Source of the DNA: Candidatus Deferrimicrobiaceae bacterium
Lineage (GTDB): Bacteria > Desulfobacterota > Deferrimicrobia > Deferrimicrobiales > Deferrimicrobiaceae
Reading direction: 5' to 3'
Length of the DNA: 64,000 bases
Assembly: GCA_963792415.1 (NCBI GenBank)
Contig: CAWBVY010000001.1
Coordinates: 320,001 to 384,000, forward strand
Below the pieces are notes generated by a model. It had not been told where the DNA came from, did not search any database, and worked only from the letters and a program-made list of their open reading frames with translations. Below, piece after piece: positions 29,557 through 60,054 of this stretch (position 1 is its first letter; the number at the start of each line of letters is the position of its first letter). Position numbers and translations under genes: made by a program.

Positions 29557-29904
29557 TTACCACAGAGGCACAGAGTACGCAGAGATTTTTCCTTTTTTTC
29601 ATTGTCGGTGATCCCAGTACCATCTAATAGAGCTACGGGACAAGGAGGCCGACAATGAAAAACCAATCTACAATTTCTATGAAATTAAGTGCCGGATTTT
29701 ATTTATAGGCTGCAAAGCATATTCCACTGGGATCAAAGGATATGCCCCCCTTTAGGCAATAAAACACAATCTGTCGTAATCCCGGCGTCTATAGGAAAAA
29801 TTTAAAATTGAAGCGGATATCTTTATGTTTGCCGCCCTATCAACGGCAAACATAAAACAAGTACCCTCTTCTTCCTCCGTGCCTCGAGCGCAGCGGGTGG
29901 TGAA
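29557..29904. mobile_element. Intergenic element family 1, empty copy
   Basis: Left end ttaccacagaggcacagag; two subterminal hairpins; right end ccgtgcctc-gagcgcagcggg-tggtgaa. Confidence 0.65.
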
Positions 29905-29920
29905 AACCTAAAGAAAGATC

Positions 29921-30120
29921 TCACCACAGAGACACCGAGGACACAGCGAATTTTATTTTTCACCAAATCGGGAGACGACGATTTGATGAAACTTCTGTCC
30001 ACAAATATCCAAATTTCACCCCAGAAGGTGAGCGGTTTTCATTGAGCGATGTCTCCTGCTCAATGAAAAAAATCTTAAACTCTCAGTGCTCTCTGTGCCT
30101 CAAGCGCAGCGGGTGGTGAA
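29921..30120. mobile_element. Intergenic element family 1, empty copy
   Basis: tcaccacagagacaccgag...ctctgtgcctc-aagcgcagcggg-tggtgaa with two hairpins. Confidence 0.65.
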
Positions 30121-30159
30121 ACCCTATTGATCCCCAACCTCCATTTGCGCAGCAAATAA

Positions 30160-31311
30160 ATGTCCAAAATCGTTAAAGCCCTCGAAAAGTATAAAAAAGA
30201 ACACAACCTGACTTCGTCCCAGGTTTTCAATCTCGATCATGCGAAACCGCCTGAATCTGCACTGGATTCCGATGAAGACCAGTATATTCAGGAAAACGTC
30301 GATGCCGATGCGGCAAAAGAGTCGACGCAGCCGTATCCACAGCAAGAAGAAAGAATCGCTGTGCAAGTTGTTGATTCTCGCGAGGCATCGCAGCCGCAGG
30401 CTGATAGGCCTTTAAGTGAGCCGGCGAACATCGCGCCGAAACGAAGCCCCCATTTTGTTTTGGCCGATAAACAACCTGCAAAAACAGCATCCACAGAAAT
30501 CGAAAACAAAGGGAGGGTACCTCTCCTCGGTGACGAAAAGGCCAACCCGGCAACGCAACCACCAGAACTCACTTCGGCTGCCCCATCGGAGCCGACCTGC
30601 GCTTGCATGCCGTCAAATCGGTTCGCCCCGGACCTCATATCGATTGTCAATCCTCGCTGTGTCGAAGCGGAAATATTCAAGGTGCTGAGGGGTAAGATCC
30701 TTTTCCCGACTTCCGGCAAACCGCCGCGGTCCATAATGGTCACCAGCACGGTCCCGGGCGAGGGGAAATCCTTCGTTGCCGCTAATCTCGCCGTGAACAT
30801 GGCCCACAACATCGAAAAACACGTCCTGCTGGTAGACTGCGACATCCGCAGGCCGACCATTCACAAACTCTTTGGGATCGGCATGGTCAAGGGGCTGAGC
30901 GAGCACCTGTCGAATGGCAACAAGCTTCCCTCCTTGCTTCTCAAAACCGGAGTCGATAAGTTGACCATTCTGCCCAGCGGAACACCGCCCGCCAATCCAT
31001 CGGAACTCTTGTCCTCCGATAAAATGGCCGCCCTCATTGAGGAGCTCAAATCCCGCTATGATGACCGTTTTTTGATTATCGATTCCCCCCCGCCCATGCT
31101 GGGTCCGGAAACCACTGCCATCGCCAAGCAGGTCGACGGCATCATCGTGGTGATCAAGTTCGGCAGCACCCCGATGGATGCGGTCGAAGAGCTGATCGAC
31201 AACCTGGGCAAAGAAAAGATCATCGGCGCGGTCATCAACCGCTTCGATGGCCGCACCTCCAGATACTACGGCTACAAGAAATACGGGAAATATTACCGCA
31301 GCAAACCGTAG
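30160..31311 (+). CDS. Polysaccharide biosynthesis tyrosine autokinase (CpsD/CapB)
   Basis: PGEGKS Walker A, LLVDCDIRRP, IIDSPP, Tyr-rich C-terminus. Confidence 0.92.
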   Translation: MSKIVKALEKYKKEHNLTSSQVFNLDHAKPPESALDSDEDQYIQENVDADAAKESTQPYPQQEERIAVQVVDSREASQPQADRPLSEPANIAPKRSPHFVLADKQPAKTASTEIENKGRVPLLGDEKANPATQPPELTSAAPSEPTCACMPSNRFAPDLISIVNPRCVEAEIFKVLRGKILFPTSGKPPRSIMVTSTVPGEGKSFVAANLAVNMAHNIEKHVLLVDCDIRRPTIHKLFGIGMVKGLSEHLSNGNKLPSLLLKTGVDKLTILPSGTPPANPSELLSSDKMAALIEELKSRYDDRFLIIDSPPPMLGPETTAIAKQVDGIIVVIKFGSTPMDAVEELIDNLGKEKIIGAVINRFDGRTSRYYGYKKYGKYYRSKP

Positions 31312-31368
31312 GTTTGTGTTTGTTGCGGGTTGTGTGTTGATTCAAGAGAAGTAAGCAGAGCAGCTGAA

Positions 31369-31881
31369 GGAATGGATTCGATTTGATGCTGAAAAGAATT
31401 AGACAGGATAATCAGGATAAACATAAATATTCCTGGCTTTCCAGATGAAAGCCAGGAAGGCACTATCCGCCGCTTCACTCAATGATATTTTGATCTTTCG
31501 CCGAAGGCGATTGAGTTTTGCCTGTTTCATCCGGAAACAGGCAAAGCTAATAATTCAACAGATCCTGTAAATCCCGTCCAATAAAAAATCTTAAAATCGA
31601 ATCCATTCCACTAAAATAAGAACTGGACAGGATAGACAAGATTGTCAGGTTAAATTTCCGGTTTCCAGCCTGCCCGCTGTGTCCTTTTTGGACTTCGGGA
31701 AGAAACCGAAAAACCAACACCCGCTTTCAGCGACAATAATATTTTTCGTATAACTGAAATGGTAGCCCTTCTCCGAAGGCGATTGAATTTTATAACTTTC
31801 TTCAGGAAAGTTATAAACAAAAAAATCCAAAAAATCCTGTAAATCCTGTCCAATAAAAAAACTTAAGATCGAATCCATTCC
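31369..31881. mobile_element. Intergenic element family 2, two tandem copies
   Basis: Perfect 16-bp IR ggaatggattcgattt (31369) / aaatcgaatccattcc (31594); gacaggat/atcctgt periodic repeats; second right end at 31881. Confidence 0.65.
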
Positions 31882-31895
31882 TCCAAGAGAAAAAT

Positions 31896-33033
31896 ATGCA
31901 AATCCCTTTCTTAGATCTCAAAGCCCAATACAAACAAATCGAGTCTGAAGTCGTCCCCGCCGTCACCGAAGCCATGGCCACCGGTATGTTCATCGGCGGC
32001 CCCCAGGTGTCCGGCTTCGAAGACGAATTCGCCCAATTTTGCGACAGCAAATACTGCATCGGCGTCGGTTCCGGCACTGACGCCCTCCGCTTCGCCCTCA
32101 TGGCGGCCGGCATCGGCCCGGGCGACGCGGTCATCACGGTCCCCAACACCTTCATCGCCACCACCGAAGCCATATCCCAGGTCGGCGCCACCCCGATCTT
32201 CGTCGACGTCGACCCCAAAACCTACACCATGGACCCCCAAAAACTAGCCGATTTACTGAAAAACAATCATAACAACAATCAAACCCACAACAATCCAAAT
32301 CGCCAAAGGCGTTATCCCCGTCCACCTCTACGGCCAGCCGGCCGACATGGACCCGATCCTCGACATTGCCCGGCAATACGACCTTGTCGTCATCGAAGAC
32401 GCCTGCCAGGCACACGGCGCCTCGTATAAAAACAGGAAGGCCGGATCACTGAGCACGGCCGGCTGCTTCAGCTTCTACCCCGGAAAGAATCTCGGCGCCT
32501 TCGGCGAAGCCGGGGCCGTCGTGACCCAGGATGAAGAGATGGCACAGAAGATGCGCATGATCCGGGATCACGGGCAGGCGCAGAAATATTTTCACGACCT
32601 CGAAGGCTACAACGGCCGCCTCGATGCGATCCAGGCCGCGGTGCTCCGCATCAAGCTGAAGCGGTTGCAGGGCTGGAACCGATCCCGCCGGAAAAATGCG
32701 GCCCTTTACACCGAACTCTTGCAGGACGTTCCCGGCATTACGCTGCCCGTGGAAGCCGAGTTCGCCGAATCGGTCTATCATCTCTACGTGATCCTTGCAG
32801 ACAACCGCGATGGGCTTCAGAAGTTCCTTTCAGAAAAAGGCATCGCCACCGGCCTGCACTACCCGCTGCCGCTCCATCTGCAGAAAGCCTACGCTCACCT
32901 CGGCTATAAAAAAGGCGACTTCCCGGTCGCCGAGCACGCCGCCGAACGCCTCCTCTCGCTCCCCATGTACCCTGAGCTGACAGCAGAGCAGATCGATTAC
33001 GTCTGTTCATCTATCAGAGAATATTTTAAATAG
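31896..33033 (+). CDS. DegT/DnrJ/EryC1/StrS sugar aminotransferase, frameshift near 32290
   Basis: IPFLDL, GSGTDAL, IEDACQAHG, SFYPGKNLGA. Confidence 0.92.
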
Positions 33034-33036
33034 TAA

Positions 33037-33309
33037 TTCACCACAGAGGCACAGAGAGCACAGAGAATACTTTTTTCTTTTCCTTTGCCGGTAGACAGCG
33101 GCAAAGGAAAACCAATCTGCACTTTCTACGAAATGAATTGCTGGATTGTATTCATAGGCTGCAAAGCATATTCCACTCGGATCAGCGAAAAAATAGATAA
33201 CCGTAAAGCCTGCCGCAGGCATGAGTTTATTTCATTTGCCGGTATCTCCCGGCAAATGAATGAACTAGACTCTCAGTGATCTCTGTGCCTCGAGCGAAGC
33301 GGGCGGTAA
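33037..33309. mobile_element. Intergenic element family 1, empty copy
   Basis: ttcaccacagaggcacagagagcacagag 3 nt after a stop codon; two hairpins; right end ctctgtgcctcgagcgaagcgggcggtaa. Confidence 0.7.
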
Positions 33310-33327
33310 AAACCAAATAATAGATAC

Positions 33328-33679
33328 TAACCACAGAGACACAGGGAACACAGAGATATTTATTTTCTTTTCCTTTGCCGGTGCTTGCATCCCGTCTTGG
33401 CGGGGAAGACGACGGCAAAGGAAACCCAATCTGCCATCTGAGCAGGATTGCTTTACCTTCTTGAGTCTTTTGAACCTAATATAGAGGTGGCTATAAAATA
33501 CATTGGAGTTAAGTGTTCCATATTTGGAAAAACTTCTGAACCTTACTCCCACAGGGATGAGTCCTTTTGTTCAATCGTCGCCAGCCCGCCATCGCTCCCT
33601 CGCTCAGGCGAGGCGGGCGGGTCTCCCGATTGAACAAAAAATAAAAAATCTCTCAGTGTCCTCAGTGTCTCTGTGGTAA
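33328..33679. mobile_element. Intergenic element family 1, empty copy with nested mini-inserts
   Basis: taaccacagagacacagggaacacagag...ctcagtgtctctgtggtaa. Confidence 0.7.
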
Positions 33680-33742
33680 AAAACATCATTAAACTCTCTT
33701 CGCACTTTGCGTCTCAGCAGTGAATGAATTAAAGGAGGAAAG

Positions 33743-34754
33743 ATGATTAAAATAGGGCTTATAGGATACGGCTATTGGGGACCGAACTTGGCCCGCAACT
33801 TCCACTTCAACAACGACCTCGAGCTCATCGCCATCTGTGATTTTTCAAGCGATCGCCTGAAAGCCTCGTGCAAGCTCTACCCCCAAGTAGACTGCTATGA
33901 CAACGTCGACGATTTTTTCGCCAACACCGACATGGACGCCGTGGCCATCGCCACTCCGGTCGGCACCCACTTTGAGCTGGCCAAGCGGGCCATCGAGAGC
34001 GGTCGGCACCTGTGGCTGGAAAAGCCGATGACCGAAACGGTCGAGCAGGGCAGGGCAGCTGATCAAGCTGGCCAAAAAGAAAAAAAAGGTTCTCCTCGTC
34101 GACCACACCTTCGTCTACACCGGGGCGGTCCGCAAGATCAAAGACCTGATCCGCAAGGGCGAGCTGGGGCATATCATCTATTACGACTCGACCCGCATCA
34201 ACCTGGGACTTTTCCAGCAGGACATCAACGTCATCTGGGACTTGGCGCCGCATGACATCTCTATCATGGACTTTCTGATGCCCTTCGAAAAGGTGGCCGT
34301 TTCGGCTACCGGCAGCCACTATTACGGCAACGGCATTGTGCCTAAATCGCTTTTGACCATCTATATGGCCGCCGATATCGTCGCCCACATCAACGTGAGC
34401 TGGGTCTCACCGGTCAAGATCCGCCAGACCCTGATCGGCGGCAGCCTGAAGATGATTCTCTACGACGACACACACCCCAGCGAAAAGGTCAAGATCTACG
34501 ACTCGGGCGTGGACCTCGACTTTACCAAGGAGGAACTCTACCACATGAAGGTCCAGTACCGGGTCGGGGACATGTACGCCCCCAAGCTGGAAGGCCACGA
34601 GGCCCTGGCTCTCGAAACCGAACATTTCGTCGACTGTCTGATCAACGGCACCGAGCCCTTGACCGGCGGCCGCGAAGGCCTCCAAATAGTAAAAATCCTC
34701 ACCGCTGCCGAGCAGTCCCTAAAAAACAAAGGCACTCCCGTCGAATTGGTGTAG
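33743..34754 (+). CDS. Gfo/Idh/MocA oxidoreductase, frameshift near 34050
   Basis: GYGYWGPN, IATP, EKPM, WDLAPHD. Confidence 0.9.
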
Positions 34755-34756
34755 GA

Positions 34757-35131
34757 TTCACCGCAGAAAGAACAAATTTCACCACAGAGGCACAGAGGGC
34801 ACAGAGATATTTCCTTTTTTTCATTGTCGGTGTGAGAGGCCGACAAGCAAAAGACAACTCACTGCAATAAATACTGAATATTGTAGATCTGCGTTTATTA
34901 CTGGATTATAGTACATAGGGTATGAAAACAACTGATTGTAAGGGTCGCAAATGAACTCCCTGTGACTCATGAGTGGAAAAACATAACTTCTTCGTCTCCG
35001 TGCCTCAGCGACGGATCTTCATTTGCCGGTCCTCTCACGGCAAATGAATATAATCAAATTCTCAGTGATCTCAGTGCCTCTGTGGTTAAAAACATCATTA
35101 AAGCTTGCGCTCTCTGTGCCTCTGTGGTGAA
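34757..35131. mobile_element. Intergenic element family 1, nested copies
   Basis: Left ends at 34757 (truncated) and 34778; right ends at 35089 and 35131. Confidence 0.65.
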
Positions 35132-35139
35132 TAATATTA

Positions 35140-35510
35140 ATGGACATCAATCAGCTAACCAGCAAGATCATCGGTGCGGCAATAGAGGTTCACAAAACAA
35201 TTGGTCCTGGTTTGTTAGAGGGGATATACGAAGACTGTTTATGCATTGAGTTAGAAAGGCGAGGAATTCCTTTTGAGCGGCAGAAAAGGATTGATATCGA
35301 ATATAAAGGAGTAAAATTAAATAATCAATATCGACTTGACCTTGTTGTCAATAACATGGCTGTAGTTGAACTAAAACCGTAGATGAACTCGCACCAATTC
35401 ATGATGCTCAGGTATTGACCTATCTCAAATTAACGGGCTTAAAGGTTGGTTTGCTCATCAATTTTAATACTGCAATACTTAAGGACGGTATAAAGCGTTT
35501 GATAATGTAG
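35140..35510 (+). CDS. GxxExxY protein (PD-(D/E)XK-like), frameshift near 35375
   Basis: [31 protein letters not shown]; AQVLTYLK...GLLINF in next frame. Confidence 0.9.
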
Positions 35511-35834
35511 AGTCAAGAGGTGATCATTACTTTTGCCCTATCGCCGTCTCCCGATAGGACAAAAAACAAAATATCTCTCAGTGTCCTCAGTGTCGCTGTG
35601 GTAAATAAATAGCATCTTTTCTTAATTTTTCCAGTGCTTAAAGAAGGTATAAAACGACCTGTACCGTAGATTTACGAATTGCCGGAATTTCATCGACATA
35701 GCCTGCCGCAGGCATGAGTGTGTTTCATTTGCCGGTATCCTCGCCCCGTAGCTCCAGCAGATGGTACCGGGGTTCCGGCAAATGAAATAAATATATCCTC
35801 TTTGCTCACTCTGCGCCTCTGTGGTAAATAAATA

Positions 35835-36304
35835 ATGAAAAAAATAGCACCAGATGTCATCCTTGGCAAAGACGTCCAACTGAACGAATTCATCAACCTT
35901 TACGGCTGCACCATCGGCGACGGCACCAAGATCGGCCCCTTCGTCGAAATCCAAAAAAACGCCTCCATCGGCAAGAACTGCAAGATCCAGAGCCACACCT
36001 TCATCTGCGAGGGCGTCACCATCGAGGACGAGGTCTTCGTCGGTCACGGCGTCATGTTCATCAACGACAAATACCCCAAGGCCACCACCGACAGCGGCGG
36101 CCTGCAGACCGAAGCCGACTGGCAGGTCGTTCCCACGGTCGTCAAAACCAGAGCTTCTCTCGGCTCCAACGCCACCATCCTCTGCGGCGTCACCATCGGC
36201 GAAGGACGCCGTCGATCGGCGCCGGCAGCGTCGTCACCAAAGATGTACCGGCCAACACAGTAGTCGCAGGAAATCCAGCGTGCGTTTTGAAAAAACGCGG
36301 TTAA
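35835..36304 (+). CDS. Hexapeptide-repeat sugar N-acetyltransferase (WbpD/WlbB-like), frameshift near 36205
   Basis: NLYGCTIG, KIQSHTFICEGV, MFINDKYP, VVAGNPA. Confidence 0.88.
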
Positions 36305-36995: not shown

Positions 36996-37008
36996 ATCCA
37001 AAGCATCG

Positions 37009-37263: not shown

Positions 37264-37394
37264 GAAGAGTTTGCTATCATTTTTACCCATTGGTGCTCCG
37301 GACAAAAAAACCCATTTAATCCTGCCTGCCCTGTTAAATCATTACCATTTAACCGGGGTAGCCCCTGCAGACGGTACTGGGGTCAACGATAAAT

Positions 37395-37591: not shown

Positions 37592-37789
37592 TCTTGTATT
37601 GACGATAATGAATGTGAAGACATTGAATTAGAAGTTATTTTTTCGCCTCAGGCGATTGGATTTTTTAACTTTCGTCCGGAAAGTTAAAAACAAAAAGAAT
37701 CCTAAAAATCCAGTAAATCCTGTCCAATAAATTCATTTCTGTGTTTTATACATTGGTTGACTGTCGTAGCATATTGAGGAGGAAACCAT

Positions 37790-39044: not shown

Positions 39045-39252
39045 TCGATAATAACAAAATTCTTGAAAGAAAAATTAAGCGGCTTTAGCGTACCGGCCAG
39101 CAGAAGAATCCATAAACCAACTCTGCCTCAGGTGGATGGACAATTTCAGTTTCTTCAGGAAACTGAAAATATATATTAATCCATTTAATCCCATGGATCC
39201 TGTCTAATTGATAATATAAATCGAATCCAAACCTTGTTAATCAATAACATAT

Positions 39253-42211: not shown

Positions 42212-42554
42212 TTCACCGCTAGAGGCACAGAGGCCCGCCTGCCTTTCCTGCAGTGAGCCGGATGAAGCTAAAATGTATTACACATGTGGACTACTGACAA
42301 ACTTTATGTTGGATAGTCCCCAACGATGAATGATTGGAACATATAAGATCTGTCGGCTGACGTTGATAAGTTGATTTCACAGTATATTCATAACCTCGGC
42401 CGCAGGGATAGAGTTCTTTTGTTCAATCGATCTTTCCCGATTGAATAAAAACTGAAATACTTACTCTTGCGACCTCTGTGCCTCGCAGCAGAGCGGGTGG
42501 TTAAAAATTCAAAACATCATGTGACCTCTGTGTCTCGAGCGAAGCGGGCGGTGA
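42212..42554. mobile_element. Intergenic element family 1 copy with doubled right end
   Basis: ttcaccgctagaggcacagag; hairpin ttcaatcg...cgattgaa; right ends at ~42504 and 42554. Confidence 0.6.
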
Positions 42555-42915
42555 GCTCATTTCTAAACATGAAAGCGTACTCACAAAAAACAACCACCAT
42601 CAAGCGCTTTTAACCCGATTTATGCCCATCCACGGTTTCCTGCTATTTCTTTTCTCCACAGAACTATTACCTCGATGTAACAGCCCAATTAAGTGTAGTT
42701 CATTGTAAAACAAACCCCAACCATATAACTATCCAATTATTATCAAATTTTCCGTTAGCCTGTATTCCCGCGCAATTTTCCACTCATTCGTTAACGGCAT
42801 CTAAATTGCTGTTATTAATTGTTCTGTATCTATGACCTGCGACGAACAACATCCCCAGGATTTATTCTTTACCGTTTCGAAGGACCCTGGTGGGACCACT
42901 AAAAGAAGGTGCGCT

Positions 42916-48900: not shown

Positions 48901-51900
48901 CTCACGGTCACTTTCAGCGAGGCGATGATGGCGGCGACCATCAACACCGGGACCATCGAGCTGCGGAATGCCTCGGGCGCTCCTGGTGTCGGCCGCCGTC
49001 ACCTATGACGGCGCAGCCAACCGGGCGACCGTTGACCCCCAACAGTCCCCTGGCGGTTTCTTCGGCCTATACAGCCATCGTCAAGGGCGGTGTCCGGCGG
49101 CGTGAAAGATGCGGCCGGAAATCCGTTAGGCCGCCGATTACGGCTGGGGATTCGTCAGCAGCGCGTCCAATCCGTTCGGCAATGGTCCCGGCGGACCGAT
49201 TCTGGTCGTCACCTCCGCCTCCAGCCCCTTCAGCCGCTATTACGCCGAGATTCTGCGGGCCGAAGGGCTGAACGCCTTCGCCCTGCAGCGACCTGTCATC
49301 TGTCACGGCGACGATTCTCGACCAGTACGATGTCGTCGATCCTGGGGGAGATGCCGCTGACATCGACCCAGGTGACCATGTTCACCAACTGGGTCACCGC
49401 CGGCGGCAACCTGATCGCCATGCGGCCGGACAAGCAGCTGGCCGGGCTGCTCGGGTTGACCGACTCTCGGGACGACCCTGTCGGAAGGCTACCTGCTGGT
49501 CGACACGTCCTCCGATCCGGGGGCCGGCATCGTCGGGCAGACGATCCAGTTCCACGGCACGGCCGACCGCTACACCCTGGAGAGCGCCGCCGCCCTGGCA
49601 ACGCTCTATTCGACGGCCACCACCGCGACCGCGAACCCGGCCGTCACCTTGCGCAGCGTGGGGTCGAACGGCGGGCAGGCCGCCGCCTTCACCTTCGACC
49701 TGGCGCGCTCCATCGTCTACACCCGCCAGGGCAACCCGGCCTGGGTCGGACAGGAGCGCGACGGGATATCGCCGATCCGCTCCGATGATCTTTTCTACGG
49801 CAATGCGCCGGCGACTCCAGCCCGACTGGATCGATCTGAACAAGGTGGCCATTCCGCAGGCGGACGAGCAGCAGCGGCTGCTGGCCAACATGATCATCCG
49901 GATGAACGCCGACAAAAAGCCGCTGCCGCGGTTCTGGTACTTCCCGAACGACCATGAGGCGGTGGTCATCATGACCGGCGACGATCATGGCCATGACGGG
50001 ACCGCCGGGCGCTTCAACGCCGAGATCATCAGCAGTCCTCCGGGCTGCTCGGTCGACGACTGGGAGTGCATCCGCAGCTCTTCCTACATCTATCCCGATC
50101 CGGACGGTGCGGTGACCGACGCCGAGGCGGCGGCCTACGATGCCCACGGCTTTGAAATCGGCCTTCACGTCAACACCTTCTGCGCCGACTACACGGCCGG
50201 TATGCTCGAGACCTATTTCAGCGATCAGATGGGGGCCTGGTATGGCGTTGTTTCCGAGCCTGGCCCCGCCGGTCAGTCATCGGCAGCACTGCATCGCCTG
50301 GAGCGGTTACACGGTTCTGCCGGAGGAAGAGGCGAAATACGGCATCCGCCTGGATGTGAACTACTACTACTGGCCCCCGGACTGGATTGCAAACCGGCCG
50401 GGTTTCTTCACCGGCTCCGGCATGCCGATGCGGTTTGCGGCCCTGAACGGCACCCTCATCGATGTCTACCAGGCCACCACCCAGATGACCGACGAATCCG
50501 GGCAGACCTATCCCTACACGATAAACACGCTGCTCGACCGGGCCATCGGGCCCGAGAAGTACTACGGGGTCTTTACCGCCAACATGCACACCGATTATGC
50601 GACTCTCCGGTGATTACGATGCCCTCATCGCCTCGGCCCAGGCGCGGGGCGTGCCGGTGATTTCCGCGCGGCAGATGCTCAAATGGCTCGACGGGCGCAA
50701 CGGGTCGTCCTTCGGCTCGATCGCCTGGAACGGCACGCGTTCTCAGTTTCACGGTTTCAGCGCGGGCAGGGGGCCAACGGTCTGCAGGCGATGGTGCCGC
50801 TTGCGCCGGGGGTTACGGTGACGAACATCACCCGCAACGGCAGCGCGATCGGTTATGTGATCAAAGAGGTCAAAGGCATCAGTTATGCCGTATTTTCCGC
50901 CTCGGCCGGTTCCTATGCGGTAACGATGGCTGCCGATGTGACGCCGCCCACGGTCATCGACAATACGCCGTCGGATGGTGCGGTCGACGTGAGCACAGGG
51001 ACGGCAGTGACGGTTACCTTCAGCGAGCCCATGGATGCGGCAACGGTCGAACCAGACGACCTTTGAGTTGCGCGATTCTTCGAATGCTCCAGTGTCTGCC
51101 GCTGTCTCGTACAACACCGGCACGAACACGGCAACGTTGACATCCGAACTCAAGGTTGAGCGCAGCGAAGACCTATACGGCGACCTTGCTTGGTGATGCC
51201 GGAGGGGCGGCCGACTTTAGCCGGGAACCCGCTTGCCGTTGACTACGCTTGGTCGTTTACCACCGCTGCTGCTGGAACTTCGGTTTCCTACAGCTTATGG
51301 GACGATGCAACTGATACCGTCGATTCTTGAGGACCCGGACCGAACCGCCCAGTCTCAGGGAATTGAGCTGGGCGTCAAGTTTCAGAGTGTGACGGATGGC
51401 TACATCACCGGGCTGCGGTTTTACAAGGGACCGAACAACACCGGCACCCACGTGGGCAATCTGTGGACGGCCGGCGGCACGTTGCTGGCCAGTGTGACCT
51501 TCACCAACGAGACGGCCTCGGGTGGCAGGAGATGGTTCTGCCGGCACCGGTGGCGATCACGGCCGACACGACCTACGTGGCCTCCTATCATGCGCCTGTG
51601 GGGCGTTATTCGGCCAATTCGGGTATTTCACGGCACGGGATTTCGACAATCCGCCGCTGCGGGCACTGGCGGATGGTGAAGATGGCGGCAACGGCGTTTA
51701 CCGCTATGGCGCCAGCGCGTTTCCGAACCTGACATATCAAGGCGAAAACTACTGGGTGGATGTGGTGTTTCAGGAGAGCTGGGGCCGGATACGACGCCGC
51801 CCACAGTGACACGCGACCGTGCCGGCAGCCGGTGCCGTCAATGTGAATCCTGCCGCGGTTGTCACGGTGACCTTCAGCGAGGCGATGGATGCGGCAACGA

Positions 51901-52624
51901 TCGACGACAACCACTTTTGAGCTGATGGATGCCGGCAGCATGCCTGTACCCGCCGTTGTCACTTACAACGGTTCAACTCGGACGGCGACCCTGATCCCGG
52001 CTGCGGCGCTGGCAAACACGGCGACCTACACGGCCGTTGTCAGGGGAGGGGCTGTTGGTGTGACCGATGCGGCCGGCAACCCGTTGGTCGCCAATCACAG
52101 CTGGTCGTTCACCACTGCTGCCGCTGGGACATCGGTTTCCTACAGCTTGTGGGACAATACGTTCACCCCGGCAATTCTGTCCGATTCGGATACCAGTGCG
52201 GTGGAGCTGGGGGTAAAGTTTCAGAGCAATGTCAACGGGTACATCACGGCCCTGCGGTTCTACAAGGCTGCAGCGAATACCGGCACGCACGTGGGCAACC
52301 TGTGGACCGCCAGCGGCACGTTGTTGGCCAGTGTGACCTTCACCAACGAGACCGCCTCAGGGTGGCAGGAGATGGCACTGCCGTCACCGGTGGCGATAAC
52401 CGCCAACACGACCTACATAGCCTCCTACCACACCACCGTGGGGCGCTACTCGGCCAATTCGGCCTACTTCACTTCCGCCTATGACAATTCCCCGTTGCGG
52501 GCGCCGTCCAGCAGCGCGAGCGGCGGCAACGGCGTGTACCGGTACGGCGCAGCCAGCGCGTTTCCCCACCGACACTTGGAATGCAAGCAACTACTGGGTC
52601 GACGTGGTGTTTCAGGAGCAATGA
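42916..52624 (+). CDS. Giant secreted protein: 5x DUF4082, about 12 Ig-like (Big_5) domains, PHP-type metallohydrolase and deacetylase-like domains; many frameshifts
   Basis: Repeated VELGVKF...ITALRFYK...NETASGWQ...NYWVDVVF; DTTPPTV...TFSE.MDP...D.AGN...WSFTT; WYAGDMHVH...AGSDF; TGDDH...EIGLH...RQHC. Confidence 0.8.
44406..45610. repeat. About 3.5 near-identical 342-bp tandem repeats (Ig-like domains)
   Basis: gtcacggcgaccttcagcg recurs at 44406, 44748, 45090, 45433. Confidence 0.9.
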
Positions 52625-52645
52625 AATTGAATGTTCAATATCGGG

Positions 52646-52941
52646 CTCACCGCAGAGGCGCTAAGGATGCAGAGAATTTTGGATTTTTTGCTTTTCGCTG
52701 AGACGCCGAAAAGCAAAAAGCAACTTGCCCTTCGAATACAAGTGTCGACAAAAGAGTTATCAATTTAATTGGAAATAATAGATCACTTTAGATAATATCA
52801 GTCGGGATTATTCGCCAAAGGCGACAGCGTTTTTATGTTTTCCAGCGTCCCTGTCTTGTTGAATGAAAAGCAAATTCAACTGGGACCAGCGGAAAACATA
52901 AAGAAGAATAAGCTCTGCGCTCTCTGGGTCTCTGCGGTGAA
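52646..52941. mobile_element. Intergenic element family 1, empty copy
   Basis: ctcaccgcagaggcgctaag...ctctgggtctctgcggtgaa with two hairpins. Confidence 0.7.
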
Positions 52942-53232
52942 TAATAAATATGTTGAGTCATACAGCCGATCCGTCTCCGGCAAACATAAAGGGCAATCCG
53001 CATTAAATGCGATAATTTCACGCCAAATTTCTAAAACTTAAAAGTTGTCACGAGCTTTAACCTCTTAGCACACAGAAGAAAGATAGAGATGCATGCAGTT
53101 TTGATTTCCTTTATCGTCCACTCAACGATAAAGGAAAAAAATATTTAAACTCTGCGCCCTCTGCGTCTCGAGCGAAGCCCCGGTGAAATGGCTTTCTGAT
53201 TTCACAGGGTAGGCGGGCGGTGAATTCCTAAA

Positions 53233-53628
53233 ATGGACATCAATCAACTAACCAGTAAAATCATAGGCGCAGCAATTGAAGTTCATAAACATCTCGGTCC
53301 AGGACTCTTGGAATCGGCTTATGAAGAATGCCTTTGCCATGAATTAGAATTGCGCAGAATCAGATTCGATAGGCAGAAACCATTACCGATAGAATACAAA
53401 GGACGGAAGCTTGACTGTGGCTACAGACTCGATGTCCTGGTAGAGGATAAGGTTGTTTTAGAATTGAAATCCTGTGAAAAAATTGAACCTATCCACAAGG
53501 CACAGTTGCTGACATATCTCAAACTATCGAATATAAATTTAGGCTTACTGTTGAATTTCAATAGCATAACAATGAAAGAAGGAATAGTGCGCATCGCAAA
53601 TGAACTTCCCGATCGACAGGTAAATTAG
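53233..53628 (+). CDS. GxxExxY protein, intact
   Basis: [37 protein letters not shown]. Confidence 0.93.
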
Positions 53629-53747
53629 TAGAGATTAAATCGTTTTCATTTCCGACCTCTCAACGGAAATGAAAATAATAAAACTACTCTGCGCTCTCTG
53701 CGCCTCGAGCGAAGCGGGCGGTGAAACATTTAAAAAAGGACAACCCT

Positions 53748-54960
53748 ATGCCCGAATCTCCCAAAATTATCCCCGTTGCCCGCCCCTGGCTCGACGAACG
53801 CGAAGCCGAAGCCGCCAAGCGCCCCATCATGAGCGGCTGGGTCACCCAGGGGCCCGAGGTGGCGGCCTTTGAAAAGGAGTTTGCCGACTACGTCGGGGCG
53901 AAGCATGCCTGCGCGGTGTCGAGTTGCACCACGGCCCTTCATCTGGCGCTTTTGGCCGTCGGCGTGAAACCCGGCGACGAGGTGATCACCGTCAGCCATT
54001 CCTTTATCGCCACGGCCAACAGCGTCGTGTATTGCGGCGCCAAGCCGGTTTTTGTGGATATCCAGCCGGAGACCTTCAACATCGACCCCAACCTTATCGA
54101 AAAGGTCATCACAGCCAAGACGCGCGCCATCCTGTGTGTGCACCAGATGGGGATGCCCTGCGATTTGGCGGCGATCACGGATCTTGCCAAAAAGAAGGGT
54201 CTGCCGGTCGTTGAAGATGCTGCCTGTGCCATCGGCAGCGAAATTCTGTGGAACGGGAATTGGGAAAAAATCGGAAAGCCGCAGGGCGATGCGGCCTGTT
54301 TTTCGTTTCATCCCCGCAAGGTCATCACGACCGGCGACGGCGGCATGATCACAACCGACAACGCGGAATGGGACAAGTTGTTTCGCCTCTTGCGGGTCCA
54401 CGGCATGAGCATGGACAGCTCGGCCAGGCATCGAGCCGGAAGCGTCGCGTTTGAATCCTATCTGGATCTCGGATATAATTACCGCATGACCGACATTCAG
54501 GCCGCCATCGGCCGCGAGCAGCTCAAACGCCTGCCGGAAATCGTTGCTCAGCGCCGGAAACTTGGGGATCGATACCGAAAACTCCTTGCCGACATTCCAG
54601 GGGTAATCCCTCCCTCAGAGCCCACATGGGCGCGGAGCAACTGGCAGAGCTACTGTGTGCGACTTACCGGAAGGGTGCGACCAGGTCAAGGTCATGCAGG
54701 AAATGCTCGAGGCCGGGGTTTCGACAAGACGCGGCATCATGTGCTCTCACCGGGAACCGGCCTACGCCAACGAACAGCCGTGGTCGTGCGGCAACGGACC
54801 CGGCGATTGCGGCTGCCCGCCCGGTAGCTGTAAAAACTTACCGGAAAGCGAGAACGCCCAGGATCACAGTATCTTACTGCCGCTCTATCATCAAATGACC
54901 GAGGAAGACCAGGACCGTGTGGTCGAGGCTCTCAAATCCGCTTGCAGTGCTAAGAAATGA
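53748..54960 (+). CDS. DegT/DnrJ aminotransferase, frameshift near 54665
   Basis: SSCTTALHL, VEDAACA, SFHPRKVITTGDGG, GYNYRMTD. Confidence 0.92.
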
Positions 54961-55427
54961 ATTCACCACCCGCTTCGCTCGAGACGCAGAGTGCGCAGAG
55001 AAAAGAATATTCATTTTCCTTTGCCGTTGAGAGGACGGCAAAGGAAAAAATCGTCTTTGCTGCAGGTTTAAGGTACTTTTGTTAATCGTTATTTAAGACA
55101 GCTTTTTTAATATCGAAGTCGTTCAAAGCAGTATAATCAGTGTTGCCACTGTCTATCAGATTACAAAGATAAATTTTTAGAGGTTCATTGCCACTAACCC
55201 CAGTACCATCTGCCAGAGCTACCCCAGAGGAATAGGCTACACATTCCACGGGGCAGGCGCGGCAGGGAGGATGGCAATCATAAAGAATAATCTGCTTTAA
55301 ACACGAGCACAACTTGACATGAAATATGTGATGCATGAGCTGTTTCACAACACCACTTGTAACAACCAAATAATATGTGTATTTTGTATTGGATAGGGAC
55401 AACAGTACGTTTTTAAAGGAGGTAATA

Positions 55428-55722
55428 ATGGCAGAGATAATATTGAAAACAAATAAGCCGGAAAAGGCTGCCGATATTTTGAGGGAAGCATTGGAAAAAG
55501 AAGCTTCGCGATTAAAATATAGTTTAAATCTCGCAAAAAAACGGCTTAAGAGATATGAAATAAAATACAATATTTCATCGGACAAAGTTCATTAAAGAAT
55601 GGAGCGCTGAAGACTTGAAAGGGAAGGATTTGGAATATGTGGAATGGGCCGGAGAATATCAATTATATTCAAGCTTAAATGAGCGTTTGAAAGTCTTGCA
55701 AAGTATAGAAAATGTCGCTTAA
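55428..55722 (+). CDS. Antitoxin-like protein (DUF6516 partner type), frameshift near 55588
   Basis: RYEIKYNISSD...DLEYVEWAGEY; RBS aaggagg; overlaps a truncated ORF starting MSLNKYL. Confidence 0.55.
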
Positions 55723-55867
55723 TAAGTACCTGAAGCAGTTCCGGCAAGCTGTTGGAAAGTTTGAAAGTTATGGATATGCAGAATCAGTAGAGATTAGAGA
55801 AGAAATACGGCCAAACAAACAAGCGGTTGTCAAAGCAAAAATCGTCCTCATTGATAGGAGATAAGAA

Positions 55868-56071
55868 ATGGAAACAATAGACAAAAAATTCATTGTCGAT
55901 GAGGACAATAAAAAAATAGCAGTACAAATTCCCATTGAAACCTTCGAAAAAATTGAAAAAGTTTTGGAGAATTATGCTCTATTCCAATTGATTAAAGAAA
56001 ATGAAGGTGAAGAAATTTTTGGACTGACAGAGGCAAAGGCATATTATGATCGGCTGGAAAAGACACAATGA
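55868..56071 (+). CDS. Small antitoxin-like protein
   Basis: KFIVDEDNKKIAVQIPIETFEKI; similar type to 36819; partner truncated after an ATGA overlap. Confidence 0.6.
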   Translation: METIDKKFIVDEDNKKIAVQIPIETFEKIEKVLENYALFQLIKENEGEEIFGLTEAKAYYDRLEKTQ

Positions 56072-56346
56072 AAATCGCTATTTCCCTTAACTCGAAAGAT
56101 TATAGTGGCCTAAATTTCCTTAAAAAAATCGTGACTATTTGTTTTGTTCGGAAGTTCCAAAAATAGCTTCGGGGCCTGCCCTGCTTGCCCTGTTAAATCA
56201 TTCCCATTTAACCGGGGTAGCTCCGGAAGACGGTACCAGGGCCTGCCCCGTAGCTCCAGAAGATGGTACTGGGGTCAACAACAAAGGAAAAAAGAAACAA
56301 AGCACTCTGTGCCCTCAGCCTGCCCAGTTAAATTGCCGGAAAATCA

Positions 56347-56636
56347 ATGTATTATACTTACGTTTTATTGAGCAAGTTGGATAGAGCCCTTTATGTAGGA
56401 TTCACTAATGATTTAAAGAAAAGACTTTTAGAACACAAAAAAGCTTGGTCCCCTCGACTAAACCAAGACGACCCCTAATGCTTATTTATTATGAAGCATG
56501 TTTAAATAGAAATGATGCTGTTAAAAGAGAAAAGTATTTTAAGACTGGTTATGGAAGACGTTTCCTTAACGGTCGATTGGAAAATTACTTAAAGAGTATT
56601 GGTAAATCAGGCACGCGACCAGACGGTTTCGTTTAA
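56347..56636 (+). CDS. Small GIY-YIG nuclease, frameshifted
   Basis: YYTYVLLS...LYVGFTNDLKKRL.EH...TKPRRP..LIYYEA...A.KREKYFK. Confidence 0.8.
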
Positions 56637-57037
56637 GCTTAAAAGAATATCTAGTAGTACATAGATAGGTTTTTAAGACAAAGGTTATAATAAACACAAA
56701 ACTCTGTATTCTCTGCCCCCCGCCTGCCTCGCCTGAGCCCGCCTGCCTCGTAAGCTTTGCGGGCAGGTCCGCCCTCCTGCCAAGCAGAGTGAGGTGGACG
56801 GGTCTGAGGTAAAAAATCTAAACGGAGAATCTGCGAACAGTTGACCTCCGGCAAACATAAATTGATTCCGCTTCGATAGTGGTCCTTGGATTACATTAGG
56901 GAAACTGAAATAATTTTGCTTATGTGCCTGCTATAAGCGTCGATGACAGTGTAATTTTTCTTTGTCGTCAACTCAAAGACAAAGAAAAAAGTCAAAACTC
57001 TCTGCTTTCTCTGTGCCTCTGTGGTGAAATTATTATT

Positions 57038-57200
57038 ATGACTTCAACTTCCCAAAACACCACCATCACAACTCTCTTGGCAGAAGAAATACCACCAACG
57101 GATGAGAAATCCCCTGCTGAAAAAGACACTTACGGCCAGATACTAAAGTCCTCAGCCTTGGTTGGCTGCTCTTCGGTACTGAATATCGGATTCGATATTC
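57038..57200 (+). pseudogene. Diverged 5' fragment of the O-antigen translocase
   Basis: MTSTSQNTTITT...TYGQILKSSAL matches the N-terminus at 60068. Confidence 0.85.
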
Positions 57201-57281
57201 TTGCGCGAAGGTTTTTACCATGTCTCATTTAGAACCGTAAATGAATCGGAACGATATGACTATGAGTGAAAGGAAAAAGTA

Positions 57282-58286
57282 ATGGAAACATGTTTAGTGA
57301 CAGGTGGTGCAGGATTTATAGGTTCGCATGTAGCTAAAAATCTAATCGATAGCGGATATAAAGTCATCGTATTAGATGATTTGAGTGGCGGATTTATGGA
57401 AAATGTGCCATCAAAAGCAGAATTTATTGAGGGAACAATAACTGATAGGAATTTAATTAATGAAATCGTAAAAAATCAAAAAATTGATTATATTTTTCAC
57501 CTCGCGGCATACGCTGCTGAGGGCTTAAGCCATTTTATAAAAAAATTTAACTATGAGAACAATTTAATAGGCTCCATTAACCTCATTAATGCAGCTGTAA
57601 ATTACAATGTCAGATGTTTTGTTTTTACATCGTCAATAGCAGTGTACGGTACTGCGCAATTACCAATGACAGAAGACATGACGCCAAAACCGGAAGATTC
57701 GTATGGAATAGCCAAATATGCAGTCGAATTAGAGCTAAAAGAAACACATGAAATGTTTGGTTTAAATTACATCATTTTTAGACCTCATAATGTTTATGGA
57801 GAGCATCAAAATATTGGAGACAGATATAGGAATGTAATTGGAATTTTCATGAACCAATTAATGAATCATAAAAATATGACAATATTTGGGGATGGGCAAC
57901 AAACAAGAGCCTTTACCTACATAGATGATGTCGCGCCAGTGATAGCAAAATCAATAGAAGTAAAGAATTCTTACAATGAAGTTTTTAACATAGGAGCTGA
58001 TAAAGCATACACTGTCAATGAACTTGCCAAAATTGTCGCAAAAAAGTTTAAGAATGAGTTTAATATAGATTATTTAGAACCAAGAAAAGAAGTCGTTCAC
58101 GCATTTTCAGATCATAAAAAATTAGAAAATATATTTGGAAACAATCCTAAAATACGGTTAGAAGAAGGTATTGAAAAAATGGCAAAATGGGCATTAAAAG
58201 TTGGGCCTAGGAAAAGCCAAAAATTTGGTAGCATTGAAATACTAAAAAATATGCCTGATAGCTGGAGGAAAGAGTTTAGCGATTAA
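57282..58286 (+). CDS. NAD-dependent epimerase/dehydratase (AT-rich)
   Basis: [24 protein letters not shown]. Confidence 0.92.
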   Translation: METCLVTGGAGFIGSHVAKNLIDSGYKVIVLDDLSGGFMENVPSKAEFIEGTITDRNLINEIVKNQKIDYIFHLAAYAAEGLSHFIKKFNYENNLIGSINLINAAVNYNVRCFVFTSSIAVYGTAQLPMTEDMTPKPEDSYGIAKYAVELELKETHEMFGLNYIIFRPHNVYGEHQNIGDRYRNVIGIFMNQLMNHKNMTIFGDGQQTRAFTYIDDVAPVIAKSIEVKNSYNEVFNIGADKAYTVNELAKIVAKKFKNEFNIDYLEPRKEVVHAFSDHKKLENIFGNNPKIRLEEGIEKMAKWALKVGPRKSQKFGSIEILKNMPDSWRKEFSD

Positions 58287-58343
58287 ATACAAACTATTAC
58301 AATAAGTTTAAGCTCCATACACATAACATATAGAGGGTCATCT

Positions 58344-59296
58344 ATGAAAAAACCCTTAATGCTGACAATATCGATCGTAAATACAAATAATAGAGACTTG
58401 TTAAGGAACTGTTTAATATCCATATATGAAACCGTAAAGAGATACAGGTACGAAATAATATTGGTCGATAATTGCTCGAAAGACGGTAGCGTTGAGATGG
58501 TAATGAAAAATTTTAAAGATGTCATTATCATTCAAAATAAAGGTACAATGGGATACGGATTCTGTCATAATCGTGCAATTAAAATAGCAAGAGGTAAATA
58601 TGTTTTAATTTTTAATGAGGATATGATTGTCAAAAAAAATGCCATTGATTTAATGATTGAGAGGATTGAAAAAGATGAAACAATAGGCGTATTAGGTTGT
58701 AAACTTTTAAACCCTGATGGAAGTATACAATACTCTAGCTGCTCAAACTTTCCAAGTATAAAGCAACATATTGTTGATACATTCATACCGACGAATAGTG
58801 GCTTTAAAAATAATAAAAATAGAAGATTTTTATATTTTTTTGACTATAAAACTGAGAAGGATGTTAACATAATACAAGGTAGTTGCATGTTAATACCAAA
58901 AAAAGTTTTAGATGATGTAGGAATATTTGATACGCAGTTTTTCGTTTATTCTGAAGAAGACGATCTTTGCAAAAGAATAAAGAACGGTGGCTATAAAATT
59001 ATTATTATATCCTGATGCTGAGATCATACATATTGGCGGACAAACATCAAAAAAAATGTCACTGAAGGATGGCGTTGATAATGATAGAGAGTAAAATAAA
59101 ATATTATCAAAAACATCACAGCAGGATAGAATTGACAATGTTTAAAATGATATATTTCTGTGGAAGTACTTTTAGATTAATTGGCTGGAGTGCAGCAGCC
59201 CTCACGAAAGCATACGACAAAAAATACTGTAAAGAAAACATTATTTTGAATCTCAAATCTTTAGAGTTAATAAGTAAAAAATTATTAGAAATTTAA
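58344..59296 (+). CDS. Glycosyltransferase family 2 (AT-rich), frameshifted
   Basis: ILVDNCSKDGS, GSCML, FFVYSEEDDLCKR, IHIGGQT. Confidence 0.88.
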
Positions 59297-59450
59297 TAAA
59301 AAGTAAAGATAGAATATCAAACCACAATTAACAACAAACTTTCCGCGTTCACTATCATGTAGACTTATTCCAGCTGAGTTTAAGGTTTTAAAGGAATCAC
59401 TGCAGGGACGATGAAGACGCAAAGAGTTTTTGTTATAATAATTTTCGCTG

Positions 59451-60054
59451 AAACCCGCCTTCCTCGCCTGAACCCGTCTGCTTCGCAAGCATTGCGGGCA
59501 GGCGAGAGCTATGGCGGGCAGGGGGCGGAGAGATGATTAAATTTTTTCATTGTCGGTGAGGGGCCGACAATGAAAAAGGCATCCGCCTTTTCTGATTTAC
59601 ATTCTTATTGAATCGTAGTCGATAATTTTGCGTTTGATCCATTACTCATCAATTGGGCGTTAAAAGATGGAAGACAGCATAGTAAGGAATCGCAAATGAA
59701 TTGCCAGAGTGACCAAATAAACTTGTAGAGGTTTCCCTTATTCATTCCCGGTAGTCCCTGTCCAGTTGAATGCAAGCATATTCACTGGGATCACGGGAAT
59801 GAATAAATAAATAATATTCTCCTGTGCCCTCCGCGCTTCGAGCGAAGCGGGCGGTGAATAGCAAATTGGATTTACTGTTGAATTTCATACCTGTACCATG
59901 AAACAAGGTATCTCCAGAGAAGAAAGTGTATTACCTGTGTGACCATATAAAACCTGCGGAGATTATCCATATTCATTTTCGTCCTCTCAACGAAAATGAA
60001 TATAAAAATATTACTCTCTGCGTCCTCCGCGTCTCGAGCGCAGCGGGTGGTGAA
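59451..60054. mobile_element. Family 1 copy followed by a GxxExxY remnant and a second hairpin/right end
   Basis: Hairpins at ~59541, 59738, 59969; right ends at 59858 and 60054. Confidence 0.6.
59865..59920 (+). pseudogene. GxxExxY C-terminal remnant
   Basis: ttactgttgaatttca identical to ~53545; reads LLLNF...MKQGISR. Confidence 0.6.

Follow-up and report, generated by a model that had tools for sequence, protein, structure and literature searches.

The closest described counterparts of the repeats discussed here are repetitive extragenic palindromic (REP) elements, miniature inverted-repeat transposable elements (MITEs), the attC sites of integrons, the subterminal hairpins of IS200/IS605 and the intervening sequences of 23S rRNA that bear an open reading frame (ORF). 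REP elements carry a conserved GTAG at the foot of the hairpin and have a Y1/HUH gene as partner. We compared with these systems the structured repeats in a 64,000-nt stretch of the genome of a Candidatus Deferrimicrobiaceae bacterium (GenBank assembly GCA_963792415.1, contig CAWBVY010000001.1, positions 320,001 to 384,000 of the forward strand; this whole stretch is the window, and its first letter is position 1), in which an earlier reading of the sequence (the original prediction) had pointed to hairpins that conserve pairing rather than sequence. The hairpins are real, and their pairing is kept while the stem sequence drifts. On balance we favor the view that they are a module of the inverted ends of mini-elements that carry a gene of the GxxExxY family, mostly decayed to MITE-like remnants, and that they are kept as a structure at the DNA level.

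The window holds 22 hairpins with stems of about 13 bp, at 29.5-35.9, 42.4 and 52.6-60.1 kb, and all of the stems quoted in the original prediction are present (at 29822, 33078, 55014, 52685, 53105, 53643 and 59969). A scan of the whole window (stem of at least 10, loop of 3-60) returned 32 perfect inverted repeats: 18 in this hairpin family, five in a second family, three in a third and six unrelated. The region 29400-36000 has 11 perfect stems of at least 12 bp with loops of 3-60 nt, and 52500-60100 has nine, versus 100 dinucleotide shuffles that average 0.02 and 0.03, respectively, and never exceed 1; elsewhere in the window there is one in 1-26000 and none in 43000-52500. Folded as DNA, the segment 33031-33312 reaches -59.5 kcal/mol (z = -7.9).

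In a gap-free alignment of eight hairpins with 13 stem pairs, 97.1% of cells are paired, there are no bulges, and both sides have changed at 8 of the 13 pairs, with one-sided changes at none. The covariation score was 0.577 versus 0.184 in shuffles and was reached by 0 of 500 of them; shifting the partner by one to three columns lowers pairing to 44-58%. In a wider set of 25 hairpins (21 from the window and four from other genomes, 23 of them distinct), 284 of 299 cells are Watson-Crick, three are G.T and 12 are other combinations. Compensated double changes occur at 10 of 13 positions, and the 64 compensated cells stand against an average of 15.3 over 2000 shuffles, none of which exceeds 25; this bears out the claim that pairing, not sequence, is conserved. 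The same can be said of two copies (29557 and 33037 in the original prediction) singled out for having one interior and different stems: as delimited here, at 29550 and 33031, they have ends and interior in common and differ at three stem pairs, all compensated. The decayed stems are those at 34817 (10 of 13 pairs) and at 35530, 42417 and about 29951 (12 of 13 pairs each).

If the end motifs are taken as the starting point instead, a hairpin sits 38-54 nt inside such a motif in 21 of 22 cases in the window (87 nt where a nested insertion intervenes), and the end of the 22nd, at 59543, has been overwritten by another repeat. Each hairpin forms the inner module of a half-element, oriented and about 85 nt long, that reads, from outside to inside, TTCACC (with variants TTTACC, TTAACC and CTCACC), two to four CACAGAG-type heptamers at a spacing of 8-9 nt, a T-rich spacer of 8-14 nt, and the 13-bp hairpin, whose 5' arm is T-rich and ends in CG. 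The best-supported reading of this layout is that the hairpin module is a lineage-specific inner part of the ends. Because stem sequences differ between the two hairpins, left and right, of a single intergenic element, the half-element, and not the pair, is the unit. Outside the elements the inverted symmetry extends for 3 nt, beyond which the left flank is A-rich and the right flank T-rich. Some ends carry a 14-nt GC-rich insert directly after TTCACC (29885, 30105, 33290, 42535, 53180, 53710, 54975, 59835 and 60035); it holds GCGAAGC six times or GCGCAGC three times, which would both fit the C-GNA-G type of mini-hairpin, a structure that is unusually stable in DNA.

Read from the end inward, the loops are TTGAGAGGA, TGAGAGGAC, GGAGACGA, (T)GAGAGG or GAGATR. 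The original prediction had described strand-asymmetric loops, and the ones that it quoted (ttgagagga and ctgagacgc as left loops, acctctcaa and tcctctcaa as right loops) are as it gave them. The asymmetry stands, not as a property of the chromosome strand but as one set by orientation to the nearest end: the purine-rich left loops and the pyrimidine-rich right loops are one motif in two orientations, since the left and right half-elements are inverted. A covariance model trained on eight hairpins, whose matches in the window all lie within low-GC islands, was tested on ten hairpins outside the training set; eight of these score higher in the orientation predicted from the end, including all three from other genomes (one at locus L027 and two at L115), and the two exceptions differ by less than 2 bits. 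In six of the 22 window hairpins, and in the hairpin of locus L112, another mini-palindrome is nested in the loop, mostly right after GA, and none of these hairpins has an insertion in its stem; the loops are accessible, or tolerant to insertion.

The near absence of wobble pairs (the three G.T in 299 stem cells) bears on whether the structure works as DNA or as RNA. The original prediction had proposed a comparison of G-U bias between strands, and we ran it on the arms of inward-facing elements, keeping 32 of 53 with co-directional flanks and dropping 21 with opposite or no gene calls. On the mRNA strand the arms hold 43 wobble versus 64 A.C mismatches (p = 0.05), the wrong direction for RNA. 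A DNA-level structure is favored because wobble pairs are nearly absent, an mRNA-strand excess of them is lacking, and the nested inserts lie in loops and not in stems. Of the alternatives in the original prediction, which had proposed selection on single-stranded DNA, a cruciform or RNA structure, as for attC or HUH-type ends, the DNA-level part is thus the one favored by the few wobbles, while membership of the attC or HUH systems fails on the inverted ends and the lack of an enzyme gene among the window ORFs scanned. It had also named ordinary intrinsic terminators as the observation that would undo it, and the hairpins are not that: a terminator scan gave 15 versus 12.7 expected and 7 versus 8.2 expected, which is shuffle level, it listed only the hairpin at 55014, and that marginally, and the polarity of the stems, with a T-run 5' and an A-run 3' on both strands, is the reverse of a terminator's. 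Known RNA families were likewise set aside, with no Rfam match at gathering score in the whole window and only chance-level matches in E-value scans.

What ties these ends to a gene is the company that they keep. The window contains one intact GxxExxY gene, one pseudogene and three to five remnants. The intact gene (53233..53628 on the plus strand, 131 aa, with D67, E77 and K79 present) is followed 14 nt downstream by a hairpin and then a right end, and the pseudogene (35140..35501, plus strand; a stop after 80 codons, with the reading continuing beyond) is laid out alike. Immediately upstream of three further right-hand hairpins are C-terminal remnants, all on the plus strand: residues 115-126 at 34926..34961 (score 45, where the null has a 95% point of 32 and a maximum of 43), a remnant at 59638..59709 (score 36) and residues 103-126 at 59865..59936 (score 51, above the null maximum of 43). 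Two more, at 53031 and 35637, are weaker.

The same association recurs elsewhere. In an acidobacterial locus (L097) a GxxExxY gene stands between a left and a right end. A protein search of a plasmid collection found five records with GxxExxY, and inverted repeats abut the ORF in all five; four of them have heptamer-repeat ends of the window kind, in CACAGAG, CGCAGAG and CGCGAAG variants. These are records from Bacteroides finegoldii, with the gene between radA and the next gene, from Bernardetia, from Gemmatirosa (CGCAGAG) and from Sphingomonas (CGCGAAG, between fabD and fabG). The fifth, from Treponema, has a different, 11-bp inverted repeat, and there an 8-bp hairpin follows each end, with a TAAC loop common to both and different stems. 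Counting L097, a GxxExxY gene lies between ends of the same kind in L127, L126, L128, L129 and L097, as expected of a gene-bearing partner of MITEs. One 24.8-kb B. finegoldii record has four elements, one of them with the gene. A nucleotide search (blastn) with the cassette against plasmids matched the gene only. The association of GxxExxY genes with such inverted ends in several phyla is well supported. A separate observation from B. finegoldii (L133, NZ_OY725952.1) is that a gene-less element at 8725-8917 overlaps the annotated start of a coding sequence for a "zinc ribbon domain-containing protein"; ORFs in annotations may extend across such repeats.

The window protein matches PF13366 (E = 3.3e-46) and TIGR04256 (E = 4.4e-47), a PD-(D/E)XK nuclease family, and D67, E77 and K79 are invariant across 70 aligned sequences. 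Its relatives at 73-86% identity have source names that include Desulfatiglandales, Thermodesulfobacteriota and Scalindua, and the family counts 24,293 representatives of 50%-identity clusters at E <= 0.001. Tandem-fused GxxExxY proteins of about 275 aa with two matched stretches (P0121-P0130 and others) exist, which hints that the single-domain form may act as a dimer. A structure model reached a predicted local distance difference test score (pLDDT) of 94.3; an earlier one from a shallow alignment (pLDDT 60) was discarded. In a fold search with the model Cas4, lambda exonuclease and AddAB took the top ranks (best, Cas4 SSO0001, E = 2e-3, template modeling score 0.46), with Holliday-junction resolvases at E of about 0.1, and a sequence search of the PDB gave nothing below E = 0.6. 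In one published survey the function of the family is listed as unknown and multiple transfers are described (PMC3424549); in another paper the domain is mentioned beside a reverse transcriptase (PMC8934634).

The ends themselves are widely spread. A 17-nt degenerate end motif finds at least 125 loci in a set of species-representative genomes, and the matches listed include Acidobacteriota, Planctomycetota, Cyanobacteria, Pseudomonadota, Myxococcota, Desulfobacterota, Bacteroidota, Chloroflexota and Spirochaetota, as well as two archaea. By our estimate chance alone would give about 280 single matches in 596 Gb; among 80 loci with match positions, 24 have two matches, 17 of them as inward-facing inverted pairs no more than 200 nt apart, and such pairs are not due to chance. 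With a relaxed pattern the 125 listed loci yield 50 inward-facing pairs and the window three, 53 in all, with lengths of 54-348 nt. Like MITEs, the elements have terminal inverted repeats and are small, non-coding and multi-copy, as these 53 pairs and the 22 window half-elements attest. In other genomes they lie between genes such as prfA-prmC and hypD-hypE, and gene-less palindromes with the same ends occur between operon genes in many phyla. The starts and stops called beside the ends in these loci were uninformative, ORF calling in GC-rich flanks being unreliable. In Bacteroides ovatus and B. finegoldii the element palindrome is contained in a 100-nt spacer between gmd and fcl; in Phocaeicola massiliensis the stop and start codons of these two genes overlap. 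The literature that we searched, with subscription journals outside it, contained no account of these ends or of GxxExxY mobility. Searches with the exact end-motif sequences gave nothing relevant (by title, the matches are eukaryotic primers), and the literature on intervening-sequence proteins, short tandemly repeated repetitive (STRR) sequences, Sorangium MITEs and PDDEXK proteins with inverted repeats offered, judged by its listings, nothing on these elements.

Taken together, two half-elements that face each other would bracket a miniature selfish element as its inverted ends, and the gene-bearing form of that element would carry a gene for a GxxExxY PD-(D/E)XK nuclease. The polysaccharide locus in which they lie would have been colonized many times, most copies having lost the gene and become MITE-like. 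We infer that the nuclease moves the element, and that the stem is maintained as a DNA hairpin or cruciform rather than as RNA. It would probably be read at each end by its structure together with the loop sequence, the most likely reader being the element's own putative nuclease, in nicking, synapsis or repair-mediated copying, and templated correction from arm to arm probably helps the stems to stay perfect. A broader proposal, which we put forward only tentatively, is that GxxExxY proteins are the mobility nucleases of an unrecognized class of very small mobile elements, about 0.5 kb long and with inverted ends made of heptamer repeats, which seed MITE-like palindromes between operon genes across most bacterial phyla, gut Bacteroides included, and which in some lineages have DNA hairpins read by shape and loop.

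Several points weigh against these views. Most hairpins were first picked as perfect repeats and the copies are related, which inflates the pairing figures. The T-rich hairpin module is rare: among the 125 listed loci it occurs in L027, L115 and L112 only, and the copies in Bacteroides, Bernardetia, Gemmatirosa and Sphingomonas have none, so that it is not needed for the basic life of the family. The preference for DNA over RNA depends on the absence of wobble, on crude gene calls in the arm comparison and on few mismatches. The intact window gene sits between two right-type ends instead of a left and a right one, and a gene lies inside only one of the 125 listed loci, for which 300-500 nt were fetched per side. 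The window ORFs include no known transposase. No direct repeat that could be a target-site duplication was seen, with the exact insertion borders not fixed, and the fold search matches only generic PD-(D/E)XK nucleases, weakly, at E values that are all at least 2e-3.

The repeats could instead be RNA-level cis elements of a polycistronic mRNA, in which the long stem of left and right ends would be a processing site (for RNase III, for example), the hairpins would shield the new 3' and 5' ends, and the outer GGUGA would serve as the ribosome-binding site of the next gene. E. coli REP elements and the ORF-bearing 23S rRNA intervening sequences do behave in this manner, and the repeats here fill the spacers of co-oriented genes: left ends begin 1-4 nt past stop codons at 33033, 34754 and 54960, right ends lie 9-25 nt ahead of a start codon at 35128, 35825, 53722 and 60051 (42 nt at 30117), and the distance from GGTGAA to ATG, by eye, is 6-13 nt in six of eight cases. 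The polarity of the stems, T first and A last, would also avoid termination in both directions. The pairing itself speaks otherwise, in its scarcity of G.T, its lack of one-sided changes and its want of any mRNA-strand wobble excess; the loops of the two ends are reverse complements, so that a single RNA would show two different loops; no Rfam family matches; and the outer motif is the same in the copies of Bacteroidota, organisms that make little use of Shine-Dalgarno sites. We consider the RNA explanation unlikely. A little less probable still, in our judgment, is that the palindromes have no function, their stems being perfect merely through intrastrand templated correction or repair, with loop and polarity inherited from a common ancestor. 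The near absence of one-sided intermediates, the existence of a few decayed copies and the lack of the module in most relatives would suit such an origin, but the loop motif and its orientation are kept over at least 23 distinct stems and in three metagenome-assembled genomes (MAGs) of other phyla, the layout recurs in a second, unrelated family of the window, where five of five loops are oriented, and nested insertions avoid the stems.

Two further explanations concern the protein that would act on the hairpins, and to both we give very little credence. If the stems were palindromic double-stranded sites for a dimeric protein, with specificity co-evolving with each element and no hairpin extrusion, the variation of the arms between copies would reflect diverging specificities; PD-(D/E)XK enzymes are often homodimers, and tandem-fused GxxExxY forms exist. 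However, a 131-aa protein should specify far fewer than 13 bp per arm, one locus with a single intact gene has at least 15 stem types, and the conserved part is the asymmetric center. That the repeats are integron attC sites, or IS200/IS605 or REP-RAYT (HUH) ends, is what we credit least. Co-oriented small genes, toxin-antitoxin pairs included, are indeed separated here by structured repeats in which structure is kept and sequence is not. The borders, by eye, are TTCACC ... GGTGAA with CACAGAG heptamers rather than the inverted core sites of attC (RYYYAAC / GTTRRRY), and the stems are perfect and free of the extrahelical bases of attC; neither a Phage_integrase nor a Y1_Tnp match was found among the 70 + 68 window ORFs scanned. 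Loops that are reverse complements and ends that are inverted do not fit hairpins both on one strand, as in IS200/IS605, no conserved tetranucleotide marks the foot of the T-rich hairpin, no RAYT gene is among the window ORFs, and elsewhere the elements occur singly between housekeeping genes.

Returning to the view that we favor, of half-elements as ends of GxxExxY elements, their arrangement in the window is as follows. The half-element at 29556..29662 (plus strand) shows end motif, CACAGAG heptamers, T-rich spacer and a hairpin (29595-29662) with a 40-nt loop that holds a nested mini-palindrome. It is followed on the minus strand by 29822..29904 (hairpin 29822-29856, end with the CCGCTGCGCTCGAG insert), on the plus strand by 29921..29987, recognized by eye and left out of the 25-hairpin count (end CTCACCAC, hairpin at about 29954-29987 with 12 of 13 pairs, one being C.A, and loop ggagacga), and on the minus strand by 30036..30120 (hairpin 30036-30069), which ends 42 nt ahead of the ATG at 30160. 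Next, 33037..33111 (plus; hairpin 33078-33111) begins 4 nt past the stop of a DegT gene and is followed by 33229..33310 (minus; hairpin 33229-33262), by 33328..33425 (plus; end CTAACCAC, hairpin 33368-33425 with a 32-nt loop) and by 33565..33680 (minus), whose hairpin (33565-33639) has a 49-nt GC-rich palindrome nested in its loop. The decayed hairpin 34817-34853 belongs to 34778..34853 (plus); 35015..35089 (minus; hairpin 35015-35051) is followed by a second end at 35100-35128; 35530..35605 (minus; hairpin 35530-35563) has one T.G among its 13 pairs, the other 12 being intact; and 35723..35828 (minus; hairpin 35723-35787, nested insert in the loop) ends 9 nt ahead of the ATG at 35835. A half-element with a doubled end stands apart at 42417..42555 (minus; hairpin 42417-42450, 12 of 13 pairs).

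On the right-hand side of the window, 52647..52719 (plus; end CTCACCGC, hairpin 52685-52719) is followed by 52832..52941 (minus; hairpin 52832-52902, nested insert in the loop) and by 53105..53224 (minus; hairpin 53105-53137), whose end is split by a 34-nt mini-palindrome; 53643..53725 (minus; hairpin 53643-53675) comes right after the GxxExxY stop. Next, 54962..55048 (plus; hairpin 55014-55048) begins 1 nt past a DegT stop, and 56955..57028 (minus) has its hairpin at 56955-56989. The hairpin at 59543..59577 (plus) has a GC-rich palindromic repeat in place of the end motif, and it is followed by 59738..59858 (minus; hairpin 59738-59806, nested insert in the loop) and 59969..60054 (minus; hairpin 59969-60003), which ends 16 nt ahead of the ATG at 60068.

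Other repeats share the window with this family. A second family of the same architecture occupies 31340-31890, 37640-37760 and 39130-39240: its ends contain GGAATGGATTCGATTT as well as (A)CAGGAT repeats, after which comes a hairpin built as TT-N7-TTTC, loop CNGAN, GAAA-N7-AA, often with a small TCGCC-NNN-GGCGA hairpin before it. Its five hairpins (31430, 31517, 31789, 37662 and 39144) vary in the stem and yet pair, all five loops are oriented to the end, and its outer motif has GGATTCGATTT in common with the Treponema GxxExxY repeat (L130). A third family (27600-27830 and 38400-38750) consists of a ATAAATTTTTC / GAAAAATTTAT hairpin with TTTTAGAGC and a small GC hairpin ahead of it, and adjoins tandem 7-8-mers (CTTGAAC, CTTTTAC and similar). 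Mini-palindromes of 30-45 nt with one bulged base, of the types CCCAGT.../...ACTGGG and CCCCGTAGC.../...GGTAC...GGGG, are found at 29609-29648, 35737-35775, 52847-52890, 53182-53215, 59751-59793, 37300-37370, 38530-38640, 55195-55230 and 56180-56280, and at 387-427 of L112; within T-rich hairpin loops they mostly follow GA, and one, which may have brought a 2-bp duplication with it, interrupts an end (53182). They have the look of a separate repeat family that targets structure. Another palindromic repeat is GC-rich (CCCGCCCGCCTCGCC...GGCGGGCAGG; 33578-33626, 56700-56800 and 59450-59530): it is found nested within a hairpin loop in one case and in place of an element end in another, and it is present in a Syntrophobacteria MAG too (L027, 250-300).

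The host genome has a G+C content of 68% in the window, where two islands of low G+C (about 26-43 kb and 52.5-62 kb) both belong to a polysaccharide-synthesis locus in which every gene is on the plus strand. The profile scan of its ORFs recognizes Wzz, a P-loop tyrosine-kinase-like protein, two DegT aminotransferases, a Gfo/Idh/MocA oxidoreductase, hexapeptide acetyltransferases, epimerases, a family-2 glycosyltransferase and a flippase, with small genes scattered among them (two GxxExxY, ParE, HicB/HicA and a RelB-like protein). Across the 70 + 68 ORFs that scan found no integrase, Y1/HUH or DDE transposase family, the sole exception among mobility enzymes being a weak UPF0236 match at the right edge; there, at 62088-62843 and 62912-64000, are an ORF with a DruA (Druantia defense) domain and the weak UPF0236 (transposase-like) ORF. 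The DegT, Gfo/Idh/MocA, epimerase and flippase genes are broken by frameshifts into two to five overlapping ORFs, often at homopolymer runs (31896-33033, 33743-34754, 40303-41375, 54655-54960 and 60068-61662). These are either true pseudogenes or assembly indel errors, and errors of that kind, if they are the cause, could touch the T- and A-runs at the stem bases too. Between the islands, 43000-52700 holds a giant fragmented ORF series with Big_5 (Ig-like) and DUF4082 repeats and periodic DNA repeats of 342 bp and 838 bp (85-100% identity). Three tandem 297-bp repeats, 96-98% identical, lie at 20792-21682 in an fn3/PhoD_N-like ORF on the minus strand, and at the edge of the low-GC island a fragment of a GDP-mannose-dehydratase-like gene is duplicated over 275 bp with 95% identity (25682-25956 and 27125-27399). 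ARAGORN calls a tRNA-Ala(GGC) at 41058-41133 on the minus strand, opposite to and within an epimerase ORF, with no Rfam tRNA match at gathering score. The call is probably a false positive, and a relation of the repeats to tRNA or tmRNA, with this single call and no Rfam backing, was rejected.

If the broader proposal is right, a structure-guided step in DNA movement would be carried out by a protein with a restriction-enzyme fold and not by a DDE, HUH, serine or tyrosine enzyme, and a compact system of nuclease and structured ends would join the known ways in which DNA moves. It would also give a role to GxxExxY, one of the largest families of uncharacterized small proteins, and account for palindromic repeats that break up operons and assemblies in many phyla. 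In polysaccharide loci, dense arrays of near-identical 85-nt modules are substrates for intergenic recombination. For annotation, several spurious ORFs of 60-95 aa traverse the repeats in the window, and these repeats should be masked or labeled instead of being called as small ORFs.

Among known systems, REP elements and their compound forms (bacterial interspersed mosaic elements and REPINs) are alike in being short structured palindromes in operon spacers, modular and mosaic, with inverted doublets in both arrangements and structure kept above sequence. REP elements, however, are species-specific, whereas the heptamer-repeat ends described here are conserved across phyla, and the partner of REP is the Y1/HUH protein of the RAYT type, not a PD-(D/E)XK nuclease. 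The MITEs known as Correia, ERIC, RUP and Nezha share the inverted ends, a size of 60-350 bp, the lack of coding capacity and the many copies; their ends, too, are common to a gene-bearing form, remnants of whose gene are still visible inside the elements here. The present elements differ from them in that no target-site duplication was found, the partner gene is not a known transposase and the halves of one element have different hairpins. Integron attC sites resemble them as recombination-type sites defined by fold and placed between co-oriented cassettes; the core-site motifs, extrahelical bases and integrase of that system are lacking here, where the stems are perfect. The subterminal hairpins of IS200/IS605 are likewise read as structure, and the window mini-palindromes insert at loop positions that are single-strand-like, but those hairpins are on one strand, in elements with no inverted ends, and here the ends are mirror images. 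Finally, the ORF-bearing 23S rRNA intervening sequences and free-standing homing endonuclease genes offer a parallel of another sort: in them, too, a small selfish ORF is enclosed by inverted repeats or inserted between conserved genes, and the distribution is patchy and crosses phyla. The GxxExxY elements differ from these in lying between protein-coding genes, in showing no evidence of RNA excision and in having ends built of heptamer arrays.

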